A stretch of DNA of 24,387 nt from Cellvibrionaceae bacterium (GTDB lineage Bacteria > Pseudomonadota > Gammaproteobacteria > Pseudomonadales > Cellvibrionaceae). A program made the position numbers and the translations under genes. The DNA lies in assembly GCA_035338675.1 (NCBI GenBank), contig DAOQGS010000002.1, forward strand, positions 1 to 24,387, given 5' to 3'. Each line of letters starts with the position of its first letter. Position 1 is the first letter of the stretch. The notes beneath the pieces were generated by a model. The model was not told the origin of the DNA. It ran no database searches and saw nothing but the letters and a program-made list of their open reading frames with translations. Positions 2 through 22,220 of the stretch are shown here, piece after piece.

Positions 2-835
2 TTACACCGGCTGATCGCGGCGGCGCCGCAAATTCACTGGCTTAGCGATAGCCTGCAGGACCTTACGCGCGAGGGGGAGCTGTGCCTGCTGCACACCGCC
101 GCAGGGGCGACTATTCAAACGCCGCTCATTCTCGCCGCCGATGGCGCCCGCTCTGCCGTGCGCAGCCTGGCGGCCATCCCGGTGCGCCAGTGGTCCTATG
201 GCCATACGGCCTTGGTCTGCCGGGTACATACCGAGCGCCCCCATCGCCATACCGCCTACCAGCGCTTCACCCACCAGGGCCCCCTGGCGTTTTTGCCGTT
301 ATTCCCGGCCGGGCAGCAGGACAGCTCTATTGTCTGGTCCTTAGATAACACACTTGCCGAGCAGATGATGGCGCTGAGCGAGGACGAGTTTAAAACCGCC
401 CTGGCCGCCGCCCTTGAACATCGCCTGGGCGCCGTGTTGCAGTGTGATGCCCGCCTCGCCCTGCCCTTACATCAATGCCACGCCCGCCGCTACTGCGCAC
501 CGGGAGTCACTCTGCTGGGGGATGCGGCCCACGCCATTCACCCACTGGCCGGGCAGGGCGTTAACCTGGGCCTGGCCGATGTGGCCGCTTTAGTGGATGA
601 ACTGGCCCGCGCCCACCAGAGAGGCCTGCCCCTTGCCCACCCCAGCGTACAGGATCGCTACCAGCGCGCCCGTATGCCCCACAATTTGGCGGCCATGGCG
701 GCCATGGAATCCTTCAAGCGGCTGTTCGGCAACAGCAACCCCTATGTGGGCCTGGTGCGCAACCTGGGCCTTAAGCTTGCGGGGCAGCTGCCGGGGGTGA
801 AACAGCAGTTTATGCGCTTGGCGAGCGGCCGCTAA
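2..835 (+). CDS. FAD-dependent ubiquinone-biosynthesis hydroxylase, UbiI(VisC)/UbiH/UbiF family; 5' end lies outside the window
   Basis: Frame +2 is open from base 2 (LHRLIAAAPQIHWL...LILAADGARSAVR), upstream of the track start at 158. Motifs AADGxxS, YQRF...GPLAFLP and LLGDAAHAIHPLAGQGVNLG are typical of the family. I cannot tell the paralogs apart by eye. Confidence 0.9.
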   Translation, partial: LHRLIAAAPQIHWLSDSLQDLTREGELCLLHTAAGATIQTPLILAADGARSAVRSLAAIPVRQWSYGHTALVCRVHTERPHRHTAYQRFTHQGPLAFLPLFPAGQQDSSIVWSLDNTLAEQMMALSEDEFKTALAAALEHRLGAVLQCDARLALPLHQCHARRYCAPGVTLLGDAAHAIHPLAGQGVNLGLADVAALVDELARAHQRGLPLAHPSVQDRYQRARMPHNLAAMAAMESFKRLFGNSNPYVGLVRNLGLKLAGQLPGVKQQFMRLASGR

Positions 836-2124
836 TGGCACTCGGGCCAGCAAAGACCCTGGTCAGCCAGCAGACCTGGCAGATCTGCCCCCATTGCGGC
901 GAGTTGTTGCGCCGGGTGCCGGCCTGTGAAGAGCAGGCGCTCTTGTGCCCCAACTGCCAGCTGCCGCTACCGGCGGCCAAAACCGCCTGGGTGCAACCGG
1001 CCACGGCCCTGTCGGTGGCGGCGGTGGTGTTGTTTATTATCAGCAACAGTTTTGATTTTTTAAGCCTAAAACTGGTGAGCTTTGAGCAGAGCACCAGTAT
1101 TCTCGCGGGCGTGGGCGCCCTGCTAGCCCACCAACAGTGGCTGCTGGCGGCCCTGGTGTTCTCAACGATATTTTTATTCCCCCTGCTGGAAGTCGCCGCC
1201 CTGTTGTATCTGTTAGTGCCCTTTCAGCTCAAGCGCCGCCTGCCCGGCCAGGTGGCCGTGTTGCGCTGGCTGATCCGCGCCCAGCCCTGGAGCATGCTGG
1301 AGATTTTTCTGCTGGCGATCCTGGTCACCTCGGTGAAGCTTGGCGACATGGCAAGCCTTATCCCCGGCGTGAGCATGTACGCCTTTTTTGCCCTGGTGCC
1401 GATTCTGGCCATCGCCTATGGGGTTATCGACCGGCAGAGCCTGTGGAGTTATCTGCAGCCGGATAATTGTTATGTAGCCGAGCCTTCCGATCTGCTCTAC
1501 GCCTGCGGTGTATGTGAAGCCATGGTGGGGGAGACGCTGCTGAATCACAGCGCCCATTGCCCGCGCTGCCTAAGCCCCATGCACAAGCGCATTCCCAACA
1601 GCCTGCAAAAAACCACCGCGTTAATTGTGGCCTCGGTGATTTTATATATCCCCGCCAACCTCTTACCCTTTATGACCACCCGCACCCTCACCGGGGAGCG
1701 CGACGACACCCTGGTGAGCGGGGTCATCAGCCTGCTCAACCACGATATGTGGTTAATTGCCGCCGTGGTATTTATCGCGAGTATAGTGGTGCCCATGGCC
1801 AAACTGGGGGTGCTGATTTATTTACTGGCCAGCGCCCACTGGCAGCACTACCGCAACCAAGCCACCAAAATTCGCCTGTATCACTTAACCGAATTAATCG
1901 GCCGCTGGTCCATGGTGGATGTGTATGTGGTCACCCTGCTTACCGCCCTGGTGCAGTTTGGTTTTTTAGGCAATATCCAGCCGGGCAATGCCCTGGTGGC
2001 CTTTGCCGCCGTGGTGGTATTAACTATGCTCGCCGCTGAGACTTTCGACCCGCGTTTATTAGACACCCCCCAGGAACAGCCTGGGGATTTTCCGGCCCAT
2101 GCGTTTAAACATGAATCTACCTAA
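835..2124 (+). CDS. pqiA: Paraquat-inducible protein A (two fused PqiA domains), inner-membrane component of an MCE system
   Basis: Two CxxC...CxxC clusters (CPHC/CPNC and CGVC/CPRC), each followed by TM segments; PWSMLEIFLLAILV and GRWSMVDVYVV motifs; start overlaps the upstream stop (TAATG 833-837). Confidence 0.93.
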   Translation: MALGPAKTLVSQQTWQICPHCGELLRRVPACEEQALLCPNCQLPLPAAKTAWVQPATALSVAAVVLFIISNSFDFLSLKLVSFEQSTSILAGVGALLAHQQWLLAALVFSTIFLFPLLEVAALLYLLVPFQLKRRLPGQVAVLRWLIRAQPWSMLEIFLLAILVTSVKLGDMASLIPGVSMYAFFALVPILAIAYGVIDRQSLWSYLQPDNCYVAEPSDLLYACGVCEAMVGETLLNHSAHCPRCLSPMHKRIPNSLQKTTALIVASVILYIPANLLPFMTTRTLTGERDDTLVSGVISLLNHDMWLIAAVVFIASIVVPMAKLGVLIYLLASAHWQHYRNQATKIRLYHLTELIGRWSMVDVYVVTLLTALVQFGFLGNIQPGNALVAFAAVVVLTMLAAETFDPRLLDTPQEQPGDFPAHAFKHEST

Positions 2125-3736
2125 ACCGATGGTTACACCCTTCCAAAAACTCTCGCCGGTGTGGTTAATCCCCCTGGTAGCGCTGATCATTGCCCTGTGG
2201 CTGGCGATTAATTCCTGGCAGGAAAAAGGCCAGGAAATTGAAATCCTTTTAAACGCGGCGGCGGGCATCGAAGTGGGTAAAACCCAGGTGCGCCTAAAAG
2301 ATGTGCCGGTGGGCAAGGTCTCCAAAATGCAGCTCACCGCCGATTTAAGCAAAGTGCGTTTAAAAGTCACCCTAGAGCGGGAAATTGCCAAACACCTAAG
2401 TGTGAATACGCGTTTTTGGCTGGTGAGCCCGCGTATTAGTGTGGCGGGGGTTTCCAACCTCGGCACCCTAGTATCTGGTGTATATATCGTGATGGACCCT
2501 GGTGAACCCGGCGCCTTTTCCACCAATTTTGACGGCTTACCGGAGCCACCCGCCATAGAATCCAGCGTCAAAGGCACCACCTTTTTATTGCGCGCCGACA
2601 GCCTAGATTCGGTGGATATAGGCTCGCCGGTGTATTACCGGCAATTAAAAGTCGGCGAAGTCACCAGCTATAAACTGAGCGAAACTGGCGAAGCGGTGGA
2701 AATTCGCGTGTTTGTGCAGGCCCCCCACGATAAATTAATCACCAGCCACAGCCGTTTTTGGAATGTCAGCGGGTTTGATATCAACCTGGGGCCAGACGGT
2801 GTAAAGGCGCAAATGGCCTCGTTAGTGTCGTTTTTAGGCGGCGGTATTTCCTTTGAAAATATCAACGCCTATGAAAACGCGGAACCTGCCAAAGCCAATC
2901 AAACCTTTTTTCTCTACGCCGATAAAGAATCGGTACTGGAAGGCCGCTTTAGCGCCAAATTTTATTATCTGCTGAAATTCTCCCACTCCGTGCGCGGCTT
3001 AAAAGCCGGTGCGCCGGTGGAATTTCGCGGCATTAAAGTGGGCGAAGTGGTGGATGTGGTGTTATCCAGCATTGAAAACCAAGATAAATCCCTGCTGGTG
3101 TATATCACCTTAGAGCCTGAGCGTTTTAAAGCGGATTTAGAACCCAAGCGGGAAATTATCGACGGCATGGTGGCCAAAATGGTTGACCAGGGCCTGCGCG
3201 GCCAATTGCGCACCGACAGCCTATTAACCGGCAGCCTGTATGTGGATTTAGCCTTTGAAAACAAACAAAAACCCGGCAAATTAACCGTCACCGACAACCA
3301 TGCGGAAATTCCCACCCTCGATGACCCGCTGGATCAGCTCACCAAACAGTTAAGTGAAATTACCGATAAATTTAACCGTATTCCCAGCGATAAAATTGGC
3401 GCCGACCTGGCTAAATCCATGGCGAGCTTGGCCAATATAATGAATACCCTGGATAAGAATAATACCGCTGGCAAACTCGATGGCACCCTGGGCAATCTTG
3501 AAAAAGCCACCCACGACATGGACAAAACAGTAGCCGAGGCCACCCAAACCCTCAGCCAATTGCGGGTGACTTTAAAAAGCCTGGATGCCACTTTTGCGCC
3601 GGATTCCCAATTGCATTTTGAAGTAATTGAAATGCTCAATTCCGTTACCGAAGCGTCCGATTCGTTTGATCGCATTGCCGATGAATTAAAACGCTATCCC
3701 AACGCCTTAATATTCGGAGGCAAGAAAAAAGAATGA
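2111..3736 (+). CDS. pqiB: PqiB, three-MCE-domain intermembrane transport protein
   Basis: N-terminal SPVWLIPLVALII anchor; three MCE repeats (GIEVGKTQVRLKDVPVGKV, SVDIGSPVYYRQLKVGEV, GLKAGAPVEFRGIKVGEV); helical C-terminus ending YPNALIFG. Start may be 2099 or 2111. Confidence 0.93.
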   Translation: MNLPKPMVTPFQKLSPVWLIPLVALIIALWLAINSWQEKGQEIEILLNAAAGIEVGKTQVRLKDVPVGKVSKMQLTADLSKVRLKVTLEREIAKHLSVNTRFWLVSPRISVAGVSNLGTLVSGVYIVMDPGEPGAFSTNFDGLPEPPAIESSVKGTTFLLRADSLDSVDIGSPVYYRQLKVGEVTSYKLSETGEAVEIRVFVQAPHDKLITSHSRFWNVSGFDINLGPDGVKAQMASLVSFLGGGISFENINAYENAEPAKANQTFFLYADKESVLEGRFSAKFYYLLKFSHSVRGLKAGAPVEFRGIKVGEVVDVVLSSIENQDKSLLVYITLEPERFKADLEPKREIIDGMVAKMVDQGLRGQLRTDSLLTGSLYVDLAFENKQKPGKLTVTDNHAEIPTLDDPLDQLTKQLSEITDKFNRIPSDKIGADLAKSMASLANIMNTLDKNNTAGKLDGTLGNLEKATHDMDKTVAEATQTLSQLRVTLKSLDATFAPDSQLHFEVIEMLNSVTEASDSFDRIADELKRYPNALIFGGKKKE

Positions 3737-4308
3737 TCGCCCGCGGCCTGTTATTCAGTCTGTTGCTGTGGGGGCTATGTGCCTGCAGTCAGCAGACCCA
3801 TTATTACACCCTGCACCACACCAAGGGCCCCAAAGCGCCCCTGGGCAGCTACACATTTAGCTTGGGCATAGGCCCGGTATTCCTACCGGAAAGCCACAAC
3901 CAACCGGGGGTGGTGAGCCTGACCGAAGGCCAGGAAGTCACTGTGGCCCAGTACCATATTTGGGCCGGTTATTTAAATCAGTCGGTGACGCGGGTGCTGG
4001 CCGATAATTTATCCCTGCTGCTCGGCGCCGATACCGTCTGGCCCTTTCCCTGGGATAACCGCATGCGCCCTGTGCGCCAGGTGCGGGTAATTATTGAAGA
4101 AATGGCCGGGCAGCGAGGCAAAACAGTGGCCCTACAGGCTAAATATATTCTCACCGCCGACAACGGCGAGCGCACCCTGGCCGCCGAGCGCACCCGCATT
4201 GAAGTGCCCTGCGCTGGCGATTCCTACGAAGCCTATGTGGCGGCTATTAACCAGGCGCTCAATCAATTATCCGAACAGATGGCCAAAACCCTGATCGCCA
4301 AACAATAG
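3733..4308 (+). CDS. pqiC: PqiC-like outer-membrane lipoprotein
   Basis: ATGA overlap with pqiB; lipobox-like LCAC then S...YYTL; IGPVFLP and HIWAGYL...RVLADNLS pattern; position after pqiAB. Confidence 0.85.
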   Translation: MIARGLLFSLLLWGLCACSQQTHYYTLHHTKGPKAPLGSYTFSLGIGPVFLPESHNQPGVVSLTEGQEVTVAQYHIWAGYLNQSVTRVLADNLSLLLGADTVWPFPWDNRMRPVRQVRVIIEEMAGQRGKTVALQAKYILTADNGERTLAAERTRIEVPCAGDSYEAYVAAINQALNQLSEQMAKTLIAKQ

Positions 4309-4355
4309 GCTTTTAGCCGCCGTAACTTACAGGTATCTACCCCACTATTCCTATG

Positions 4356-4834
4356 TTATGTGAAATAGATGCATGAAGATTCTATATGTTGAAAACCATC
4401 CGTACTTCGGGAAAATTGTGAAAGACAAATTCCTTAGTGAATTTCATGTAACTATAGTGCCAAGCATTAAGTCCGCCACTGAAGCAGTAAATCAATCGAG
4501 TTTTGATATAGCGTTAGTGGATTACGACTTGGATGATGGCAAAGGGGATGAATTCATCGCCTACTTAATAAGAGCAGGTATTGATTTACCTTGTATAGCA
4601 GTTTCATCCCATGAAAATGGGAATTCAGCTCTAGTTAAAGCTGGAGCAGTAAGTGTTTGCAGTAAAATGCATTTCTCAAAAATTGCTTCTGTGGTGGGTA
4701 AAATTAATGTGTAAAGTAAAACAATCACATAACAAGCGTGTCCATTTGACACTTTGGCCTACGTTGCGCTTTGGGGTGGCTGCGCCACTTTACCCCAAAG
4801 CTCCACTACGGCCAAAGTGCAAATGACACGGGCG
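4356..4834 (+). mobile_element. Solitary integron gene cassette (479 bp) integrated at G^TT (4355/4356)
   Basis: Left core GTTATGTGA (4355-4363) is the exact reverse complement of TCACATAAC (4725-4733) at the start of the attC. The cassette holds one ORF, is AT-rich and ends in an attC. Confidence 0.9.
4373..4714 (+). CDS. Stand-alone response-regulator receiver (CheY-like) protein; cassette cargo
   Basis: KILYVEN (beta1), LVDYDL with Asp50, AVSS with Ser78, Lys98. Hand count gives about 37% GC over 4381-4710, clearly lower than the flanking genes. Confidence 0.85.
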   Translation: MKILYVENHPYFGKIVKDKFLSEFHVTIVPSIKSATEAVNQSSFDIALVDYDLDDGKGDEFIAYLIRAGIDLPCIAVSSHENGNSALVKAGAVSVCSKMHFSKIASVVGKINV

Positions 4835-4840
4835 TTAAAT
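4727..4840 (+). mobile_element. attC recombination site (114 bp)
   Basis: R'' ACATAAC 4727-4733; 5-nt spacer; L'' TGTCCATT 4739-4746; L' AATGACA 4822-4828; 5-nt spacer; R' GTTAAAT 4834-4840 (fits GTTRRRY). Arm GTGTC(C)ATTTG(A)CACTTTGGCC pairs with GGCCAAAGTGCAAATGACAC, leaving an unpaired C and A (G and T on the bottom strand). Inner stem CTTTGGGGT/ACCCCAAAG. Confidence 0.93.
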
Positions 4841-5050
4841 AGAATTTTAATTATCCCTCTGCTGCTTAGCGCCTATGGCTGCGACTCCAGATCCCAGCCC
4901 CAGAGAGAGCTGACTAGGCCCGCAGCGGAGGTGAAAGCGGTCATTCCCAGCGCCATAGACGCAGCCGCGCCGGGGGCGGCGCAAGCGGTGAGTGCCGAGG
5001 ATATTAAACAGGCCCAGGAGGCCGCCGCCGATAGCCCCCAGCACGAATAA
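4823..5050 (+). CDS. Small Ala/Gln-rich probable lipoprotein; original start displaced by the cassette, now starting from an ATG inside attC
   Basis: MTRALNRILIIPLLLSAYGC resembles a signal peptide II followed by a low-complexity tail. Removing the cassette gives ATG|TTA AAT AGA (MLNRIL...) in frame. Confidence 0.6.
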   Translation: MTRALNRILIIPLLLSAYGCDSRSQPQRELTRPAAEVKAVIPSAIDAAAPGAAQAVSAEDIKQAQEAAADSPQHE

Positions 5051-5141: not shown

Positions 5142-5579
5142 ATGCGGTTAAAAAAATGTGTGATGGTGTTGGGTCTGGCGGCATTTTTACAGTCCACAAC
5201 CGGTTGCGGTTTACTCTTACACCCTGAGCGCCAGGGCTCCAAGGGCGGCAACCTGGACCCTGTCATAGTGCTGCTGGACGGTTTGGGTTTATTTTTCTTT
5301 TTAGTGCCCGGAATAGTCGCCTTTGCGGTGGATGTCTCCACCGGCTGTATTTACACCGGCGGCGGTGGTGGCGGTGGCAAGCGCCGTCATTTCTCCTCCA
5401 TCGAGCAAGGCCAGCCAATCAACGCCGATGAATTGGCGGGCATGAAAAAAATCGCTTTAAACGGCCCGGTGACTAAAGCCTCCATCGAAGCGGCCCTAGA
5501 GCGGGAACTGGGGCAAAAAGTAGATATCACCGCCGCCAATGTACAGGTGCAACCTATTTTGGAACCCGCCAAAATTTAA
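5142..5579 (+). CDS. Conserved hypothetical membrane lipoprotein
   Basis: RBS GAGGAG 7 nt before ATG 5142; signal ending TTGC; HPERQG...DPVIVLLDGLGLFFFLVPGIVAFAVD..TGCIY hydrophobic hairpin, a pattern I recognise from small proteobacterial proteins. Confidence 0.75.
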   Translation: MRLKKCVMVLGLAAFLQSTTGCGLLLHPERQGSKGGNLDPVIVLLDGLGLFFFLVPGIVAFAVDVSTGCIYTGGGGGGGKRRHFSSIEQGQPINADELAGMKKIALNGPVTKASIEAALERELGQKVDITAANVQVQPILEPAKI

Positions 5580-5584
5580 TACTT

Positions 5585-5609
5585 AACCCGGCTTTGGCCG
5601 GGTTTTTTT
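5585..5609 (+). terminator. Rho-independent terminator
   Basis: AACCCGGC-TTTG-GCCGGGTT followed by a T run, 5 nt after the stop at 5579. Confidence 0.85.
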
Positions 5610-5640
5610 ATTGCGACCCTTGTTATTAAAAAGTACGGTT

Positions 5641-6096
5641 ATGAAAAAATATGTTTTTCTTTTTGTCTTGGCCTGTACCGGGCTGTTAAGCGCCTGTAAT
5701 CCGCTGGCTAAATTTCAGCAACCGCAGGTACAGTTAAGCAATTTGGTGGTGCTGGAGCGGCACGGCTTCGAGCAGTTATTTTTGCTCAAACTCAAAGTCA
5801 CCAACCCCAATAAAATGGCCCTACCCATTGCGGGTTTGCAATACCAGGTGCGCTTAAACGGTTTTGATGTATTTACCGGTAACGCTGGAGATTTACCGCA
5901 ATTAAAAGCCTATAGTGATACCTACATTGAATTGCCGGTGAGCGCCAATTTAATTAGTGCCGGGGCCGTGTTGGCCAGTTTATTAGTCAGTGAACACCCC
6001 AGCATTAATTATCAATTAAACGCTACCTTCGATTTAACCGGTGTGCTGCCGGATTTTCGCGTGAGTGAAAAAGGCCTGGTCAATTTAGAACACTAA
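5641..6096 (+). CDS. LEA type 2 / WHy-domain lipoprotein
   Basis: MKKYVFLFVLACTGLLSAC lipobox; PQVQL, LKLKVTNPNKMALPIAGLQYQVRLNG and IELPV patterns typical of LEA_2. Confidence 0.85.
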   Translation: MKKYVFLFVLACTGLLSACNPLAKFQQPQVQLSNLVVLERHGFEQLFLLKLKVTNPNKMALPIAGLQYQVRLNGFDVFTGNAGDLPQLKAYSDTYIELPVSANLISAGAVLASLLVSEHPSINYQLNATFDLTGVLPDFRVSEKGLVNLEH

Positions 6097-22129: not shown

Positions 22130-22220
22130 GTAGGGGCGCCCCTCGTGGGTGCCCTCTGCCCAGTAAGCGCATGCTCCATGGCAGGGGGACTAACTGGGCA
22201 ACCACAAGGGTTGCCCCTAC
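22130..22220. repeat. GTAG-family REP doublet (REPIN), with a partial third end at 22266-22275
   Basis: GTAG-GGGCGCCC-CTCGT-GGGTGCCC (22130-22154, +) and GTAG-GGGCAACC-CTTGT-GGTTGCCC (22196-22220, -), inverted around a 41-nt spacer. Confidence 0.85.

Follow-up and report, generated by a model that had tools for sequence, protein, structure and literature searches.

Gene cassettes can be inserted well outside integrons by integron integrases, and the rules of this process have been worked out on a large scale. From more than 5 × 10^5 integrase-catalysed insertions outside att sites, Loot et al. derived the consensus 5'-GWT-3' for the target, called attG; they also counted 3400 SALINs in RefSeq, a SALIN being a single attC lacking an integron-integrase, and reported that cassettes at attG are expressed from resident promoters (10.1101/2022.09.11.507474). 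Among natural cassettes lying within a resident gene, the nearest precedent is the dfrA14 cassette, found at a secondary site inside strA in pCERC1-type plasmids (PMC4500777). Two further elements bear on how such cassettes and their neighbours are translated. According to the passages of PMC8876359 that cite Hanau-Bercot et al. 2002, ORF-11 and ORF-18 of attI1 boost the expression of SD-less cassettes, and according to those that cite Jacquier et al. 2009, attC stem-loops are translational barriers which short ORFs within the attC relieve.

Here we describe a cassette in a resident gene of an environmental member of the Cellvibrionaceae. The window, by which we mean the whole stretch of DNA that was analysed, is one complete contig of 24,387 bp; the draft genome from which it comes has 917 contigs and is 95% complete. 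Like a SALIN, the locus consists of a lone cassette with its attC, without an integrase or attI in the vicinity, and it has a G|TT target that fits GWT and an orientation that suits the resident promoter. It differs from the experimental insertions in being natural, apparently fixed and chromosomal, and in that its crossover falls between codons 1 and 2 of the resident gene, leaving the initiation site to the cargo and an attC-borne ATG to the host gene. With dfrA14 in strA it shares a lone cassette at a non-att site in a resident gene, a resident promoter, stable inheritance and wide spread; however, that insertion is mid-gene and leaves two strA fragments, whereas in the window the start codon is split off and a near-full-length ORF is kept.

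The likeness extends to translation. As with ORF-11 and ORF-18 in the portrayal of PMC8876359 that we draw on, a short ORF runs over the point of recombination, finds its stop codon within the cassette and ends at or near the start of an SD-less cassette gene, a layout that in attI1 gives translational coupling; ORF-11, however, is preceded at about 8 nt by a canonical GGAG SD of its own and belongs to an integron platform, while the leader in the window begins with a host ATG that has no SD. Likewise, a gene downstream of the attC depends on the contest between ribosome and hairpin, and an open frame crosses the attC, but the downstream genes described in those parts of PMC8876359 start outside the attC, whereas the only starts left to the gene in the window lie inside the stem.

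The original prediction for this locus, which was made from the sequence alone, regarded the arrangement as undescribed. Cassette insertion at non-att sites as such has been described (10.1101/2022.09.11.507474); of the geometry itself, with a crossover between codons 1 and 2, a donated initiation site and an attC-borne ATG, we found no published description. Chance will sometimes yield this geometry, since every ATG that precedes TTN or ATN could serve as an attG.

Results

Insertion site and cassette boundaries

The starting point was the claim that deleting 4356-4834 joins an ATG to TTA AAT AGA ATT and so produces a 72-aa ORF, MLNRILIIPLLLSAYGC..., a junction that we reproduced from the sequence. 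The features that define the insertion are these.

4353-4355, forward strand: captured host start codon ATG, read directly from the sequence
4355-4357, forward strand: left junction, the former attG core G|TT, from junction logic and the 7/7 complementarity of R'' with G+TTATGT
4356-4834, forward strand: integron gene cassette of 479 bp, from a drop in GC, its absence at this site in 6/6 relatives and its identity in 8 independent contigs

The attG core G|TT is made of the G of the ATG and the TT of codon 2, with the crossover between 4355 and 4356, and the junctions read G4355|TTATGT on the left and G4834|TTAAAT on the right. The reconstructed empty site is ATG|TTAAAT, and neither junction, on inspection, carries a target duplication. 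The site thus has what characterises an attG, namely a 5'-GWT-3' core, a crossover after the G and no duplication. Since the target G|TT matches the GWT consensus, we take this to be a natural SALIN insertion of a known kind.

The GC content of the cassette is 0.38-0.41, against 0.58-0.61 in both flanks, a drop that reveals its foreign origin. Its first six bases, TTATGT, placed after its last base, G, give GTTATGT, which is the perfect reverse complement of R''. The R' that is now in place, GTTAAAT, matches R'' at only 5/7 positions, as one would expect if TTAAAT belongs to the target.

The attC site

The recombination site of the cassette has the following parts.

4727-4840, forward strand: attC site of 114 nt, from its folds and inverted repeat; the last 6 nt are host DNA
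4727-4733 (R''), about 4737-4760 (L''), about 4809-4832 (L') and 4834-4840 (R'), forward strand: attC boxes, from the folds

R'', ACATAAC (4727-4733), departs once from RYYYAAC, and R', GTTAAAT (4834-4840), is of the GTTRRRY type; in the circular form of the cassette, where R' is G+TTATGT, the two are complementary at 7/7 positions. The bottom strand folds with an energy of -35.5 kcal/mol (z = -6.7, with 0/200 shuffles as good), and in this fold the L'' arm carries two single-base bulges, T and G. The site ranks first among the inverted repeats of the 24-kb window, and the inverted-repeat list holds no other comparable palindrome in the contig. We took the ranking from that list, having dropped a home-made attC scanner that was too permissive in GC-rich coding DNA. 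The attC is genuine.

Sequence searches with this site returned little. Rfam, which is without any attC model, gave 0 hits; no second copy of the attC was found in the draft genome; and BLAST against the integron regions of four congeners (G001-G004) and of the metagenomic contig L034 produced chance-level words only. The second strongest inverted repeat of the contig, at 22130-22220, is a GC-rich intergenic imperfect palindrome of 91 nt, with 25-nt arms that are 84% complementary and a spacer of 41 nt.

The split lipoprotein gene and its relatives

The gene into which the cassette was inserted lies directly behind pqiABC.

835-2124, forward strand: pqiA
2099-3736, forward strand: pqiB
3733-4308, forward strand: pqiC, ABC-transport auxiliary lipoprotein (PF03886, E = 6.5e-37), last gene of pqiABC and directly upstream of the target gene
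4309-4352, forward strand: native leader of the lipoprotein gene, unstructured and with no anti-SD pairing, colinear with the corresponding spacers (44-50 nt) in L019 and L029
4835-5050, forward strand: codons 2-72 and stop of the lipoprotein gene, with the lipobox Cys codon at 4880-4882, from the orthologues P0002, P0003 and those of G001-G004

In 6/6 relatives pqiC is followed directly by a small lipoprotein gene without interruption, namely in four congeners (81 aa in G001, 86 aa in G002, 70 aa in G003; G004 also carries the gene) and in two metagenomic sister taxa, L019 (P0002, 73 aa) and L029 (P0003, 70 aa), which in the flanking DNA share 90% and 92% identity with the window, respectively. 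In these two nearest relatives the start can be aligned base by base: the window reads CTATG-TTA-AAT-AGA once the cassette is removed, L019 reads CTATG-CTA-AAT-AAA and L029 reads CTATG-GTA-CAT-AGC, and the proteins accordingly begin MLNK (P0002) and MVHS (L029), next to MLNR as inferred for the window. The view that a cassette splits a host lipoprotein gene exactly after codon 1 is therefore borne out by uninterrupted genes in 6/6 relatives and aligned starts in the two nearest. Relatives that lack the ORF or start it elsewhere had been named as the outcome that would count against the original prediction; all six carry the gene, with a colinear start in the two nearest. The sequence and these comparisons establish that a cassette was inserted, where exactly it begins and ends, where the gene originally started and that the gene is conserved.

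The lipobox Cys is kept in 6/6 orthologues, and a C-terminal block, IP(S/T)AI(D/E)AA...SA(E/Q)(D/E), is common to five. Pairwise dN/dS of the gene lies between 0.18 and 0.44, the lowest value, 0.18, being that of the window against L019, and by these ratios purifying selection acts on it within the clade. No paralogue was found in the draft genome, where the best second match has E = 0.45. In G001 (L005:1489-1734) the start-aligned position reads AGG and the ORF begins 11 codons upstream, a shift that is natural start-codon turnover in the same gene.

We also considered that the relatives had once carried the cassette and lost it by excision, but excision would leave GTT, and the sites of the two nearest relatives read GCT and GGT, which rules this out. 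GTT at the crossover is limited to the lineage of the window, and therefore the cassette was gained here and not lost elsewhere.

A start codon inside the attC

In the occupied state the host gene has lost its ATG to the cassette, and the candidate replacement lies in the attC.

4823-4825, forward strand: in-frame ATG in the L' arm, candidate replacement start, from the ORF list; GTG 4817 and TTG 4754 are also in frame

The ATG lies 12 nt before the crossover and opens a 75-aa frame, MTRALNRIL..., only 3 residues longer than the 72-aa form, as the original prediction had it. The frame is open through the attC from 4733, and gene callers report either the 75-aa form (P0001, from ATG 4823) or a 98-aa form (P0004, from TTG 4754). 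We judged the lipoprotein signal by a PROSITE PS51257-type rule, checked by hand. The 75-aa form has R3 and R7, then ILIIPLLL and SAYG-C20, so that h-region and lipobox are unchanged with respect to the 72-aa form, whose Cys is C17; both forms conform to the type II signal peptide rule (a positively charged n-region, a hydrophobic core and a lipobox [LVI..][AS..][GAS]C whose Cys lies at position 15-35), and the claim that the lipoprotein signal is preserved thus stands. TTG 4754 was rejected as the start, as the 98-aa form would place the Cys at position 43 with no K/R in its first 7 residues, a non-canonical signal, and the codon is buried in the stem.

The initiation signals around ATG 4823 are poor. 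Its best anti-SD pairing is -1.7 kcal/mol, compared to -8.5 and -9.5 for neighbouring genes, and its mean probability of being unpaired over positions -15 to +12 is 0.07-0.15, the lowest of the 17 starts tested, with 0.01 for the start codon itself. Most other gene starts tested in the window have means of 0.4-0.6, and the native ATG 4353, which also has no SD, has the highest of the 17, at 0.61. The suspicion that a codon with no obvious SD may be poorly translated is thus supported on both counts, pairing and accessibility.

How surprising is an in-frame ATG at such a place? Among dinucleotide shuffles of 4715-4834, 27% contain an ATG that is in frame and open as far as the junction, 12% contain one within 10 codons, and 72% contain some ATG, GTG or TTG, so the idea that the ATG is statistically remarkable can be set aside on the 27% alone. 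The codon forms part of the L-box palindrome CATTTG/CAAATG, and a related attC, that of the contig L054, likewise carries CAAATG, in frame and 12 nt from its crossover, with no gene using it. The proposal that the insertion repairs itself finds no support as a designed or selected property, given the 27% expected by chance, the missing SD and the position of the ATG in the hairpin. ATG 4823 is probably a lucky and poorly usable by-product of the attC, not a repair device or a switch. On these computed signals translation of the lipoprotein is probably much reduced, and its rescue is unproven.

The cargo and an improvised leader

The cassette holds a single ORF with a 5' UTR of 17 nt, in the same orientation as the attC.

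4373-4714, forward strand: cassette cargo, a stand-alone receiver (REC) domain protein of 113 aa, no SD (PF00072, 37.4 bits)
4353-4376, forward strand: leader ORF MLCEIDA*, 7 codons, read from the sequence

The PF00072 score of 37.4 bits compares with a gathering cut-off of 30.2. The family to which the cargo belongs consists of orphan receivers of 110-130 aa, with more than 300 homologues at about 50-59% identity. Some of these are themselves found in cassette surroundings: one in L034, 56% identical, has an attC site on either side within an array of several cassettes, and in L054 (272-2130) a 51%-identical receiver lies directly 3' of a group II intron reverse-transcriptase/maturase gene, with a short attC that has TAACAAG...CCATTTGAC and GCAAATG in common with that of the window. 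All of the cassette-context homologues inspected have leaders of 10-17 nt and no SD.

Read by eye, the receiver retains the acceptor Asp (in ALVDYD), the Ser/Thr position and the Lys position, and its N-terminal acidic pair is Glu-Asn, not Asp-Asp. Given this pair, the receiver may be atypical or independent of phosphorylation.

Across the left junction the host ATG now opens a short frame that reads ATG TTA TGT GAA ATA GAT GCA TGA, the TGA (4374-4376) overlapping the ATG of the cargo (4373-4375); in the other two frames the first stops are at 4361 and 4366. The leader has the layout of ORF-11 in that it crosses the crossover point, takes its stop from the cassette and overlaps the cargo start. 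The canonical SD that ORF-11 has was sought upstream of ATG 4353, where no anti-SD pairing was found. Inside the cargo ORF there is one promoter-like match, a weak one, and shuffles give more. By analogy with ORF-11, we infer that the cargo is placed for cotranscription with pqiABC and for translation by termination-reinitiation.

The occupied allele and the integrase

The occupied locus is present at 99.98-100% identity in 8 contigs, which were assembled from several samples and come from ENA, Logan and NCBI, and the stretch or part of it occurs in runs from ten activated-sludge or wastewater studies. The original prediction had suggested that excision and integration act as a reversible switch, and had proposed the empty junction as a check. 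Contigs of 4 runs from 4 studies, in which both junctions are covered, hold no joint that skips the cassette; at a depth of 3-8x, and with contigs dropping rare variants, this has no power against rare excision. In a search of 5.8 billion clusters (about 15 billion proteins) the 72-aa protein of the empty site does not appear, and only the 75-aa and 98-aa forms do. An exact scan of JGI metagenome contigs gave neither the empty nor the occupied junction, so this collection is apparently without the organism, and among RNA runs none contains the stretch.

The draft genome, which is 95% complete, yielded no integron integrase over the cut-off, the best TIGR02249 hit having 30 bits against the required 265. 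Full-length integron integrases are present in 3/4 congeners, with 447, 444 and 396 bits over the same cut-off.

G001:C5:727971-728918 (L046): congener integron integrase
G002:C52:38762-39715 (L045): congener integron integrase
G004:C178:8570-9430 (L047): congener integron integrase

In G003 there is an integrase fragment at a contig end, and in G001 (L049) attC-like sites flank the integrase gene. Given the integrases of the congeners and the attC-like sites of G001, a source of integrase within the genus is plausible. The genus seems to have chromosomal integrons that were poorly assembled or lost in the genome of the window, and integrase activity, either in the past of the lineage or in the unassembled part of the genome, is plausible. 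In keeping with a SALIN, the 917-contig draft has no integrase over the cut-off and no second copy of this attC, and the 24-kb contig has no other palindrome of comparable strength. The reversible switch finds no backing in these results, with no integrase over the cut-off in the draft and no empty allele among the proteins searched or the contigs of the 4 runs; it is unlikely without a resident integrase, and rare excision is compatible with the data.

Discussion

Our analysis suggests the following course of events. At some point an integron integrase would have joined a circular cassette, through its folded attC, to a non-canonical attG of core G|TT, which chance had placed at the ATG|TTA with which a small conserved lipoprotein gene begins behind pqiABC; the outcome is a lone cassette, a SALIN, fixed in the sampled population. 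[quoted passage not shown] From the anatomy of the site, and with no integrase found in the draft, we infer that an integrase made the insertion and, likewise from the sequence, that translation of the cargo is coupled and that of the lipoprotein reduced. Taken as a whole, this account of an integrase-made SALIN, capture of the leader by the cargo and reduced lipoprotein translation is in our judgement the probable one, with appreciable room for doubt.

Several points tell against it, besides the lack of an integrase hit in the draft. The intact ORF and the dN/dS of 0.18 between the window and L019 fit continued function as well as they fit a recent insertion. A fixed and identical allele in several studies could mean a harmless insertion, with the gene still working. 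Moreover, ORF-11 possesses a canonical SD and the host ATG none, so that recruitment of ribosomes by the leader need not match that by ORF-11.

For the lipoprotein itself we consider three states, and production at a much reduced level appears, from the modelled initiation signals, the most likely of them, ahead both of adequate expression and of a dead gene. Could adequate lipoprotein be made from ATG 4823 or GTG 4817, leaving the insertion near neutral and hence fixable? The N-terminus, MTRA joined to LNRIL..., has Arg in its n-region, an unchanged h-region and lipobox and its Cys at position 20, and the family tolerates changes of N-terminal length, as the start 11 codons upstream in G001 testifies. 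The ORF is intact and has not accumulated an excess of non-synonymous changes, four studies yielded the occupied allele and no other, and since the native start is also without an SD the gene may never have needed one. Yet the start codon has a pairing probability of 0.99 within a stem of some -35 kcal/mol (computed as DNA), none of the 17 starts tested is less accessible (mean 0.07-0.15), and attC stem-loops are documented, in the passages of PMC8876359 cited above, to block downstream translation; chance alone would provide such an ATG in 27% of cases, and the sampled alleles, at about 100% identity, have had no time for decay to show. We therefore hold functional repair to be unlikely, though deserving of attention. 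The converse, that the gene is inactivated and the ORF is a young pseudogene still open for lack of time, we judge improbable to the same degree. The computed initiation signals are poor at all three in-frame starts, the unameliorated GC of the cassette and the lack of polymorphism among samples point to a recent event, and the dfrA14 cassette that disrupts strA from a secondary site provides a precedent (PMC4500777); against this, a gene conserved beside pqiC in 6/6 relatives and under purifying selection would probably be costly to lose, and no paralogue compensates, the best second match having E = 0.45.

A broader reading would treat the locus as a swap of start codons, in which one event gives the ribosome-entry site of the host to the cargo and a hairpin-gated ATG of the attC to the host gene, and this we regard as doubtful, somewhat more so than either of the two fates just weighed. 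If the attC-borne ATG is used, such attCs would make insertions at ATG|TTN or ATG|ATN near-neutral, and the output of the downstream gene would depend on the folding of the attC. Far less credible is an integrase that toggles between a state with the lipoprotein on and the cassette absent and one with the cassette on and the lipoprotein low. It is true that congeners have integron integrases and that excision would restore ATG|TTA exactly, but the best integrase hit in a 95%-complete draft has 30 bits and is below the cut-off, no 72-aa protein of an empty allele occurs among about 15 billion proteins, and no contig skips the cassette in 4 runs of 4 studies (at 3-8x depth, where contigs drop rare variants). 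In addition, excision would have to pair the attC with a hybrid site, and it is probably rare because the left junction has no folded attC partner.

Returning to the integrase-made SALIN with a captured leader, no new mechanism is revealed by it, and self-repair is unnecessary to explain the sequence. Its value is of a different kind. Insertion outside integrons was shown experimentally, in E. coli, only recently; the work of Loot et al. is said to have appeared later in Nature Microbiology. It is useful to have natural cases that allow one to reconstruct the original site, the exact crossover and what the insertion meant for the resident gene, and the present one indicates that a single event can capture the initiation site of a host for a cassette gene while the host gene remains nominally intact. 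The locus also lends itself to a simple three-construct test of the degree to which an attC hairpin represses a start codon lying within it.

Finally, the surroundings of the split gene are themselves conserved. In all relatives the order is pqiC, the small lipoprotein gene and then the same two downstream lipoprotein genes, which in the window (5142-6096) encode a Gly-rich predicted lipoprotein of 145 aa without a Pfam family, followed by a LEA_2 (PF03168) one. The three lipoprotein genes after pqiC may form an envelope module linked to PqiABC.
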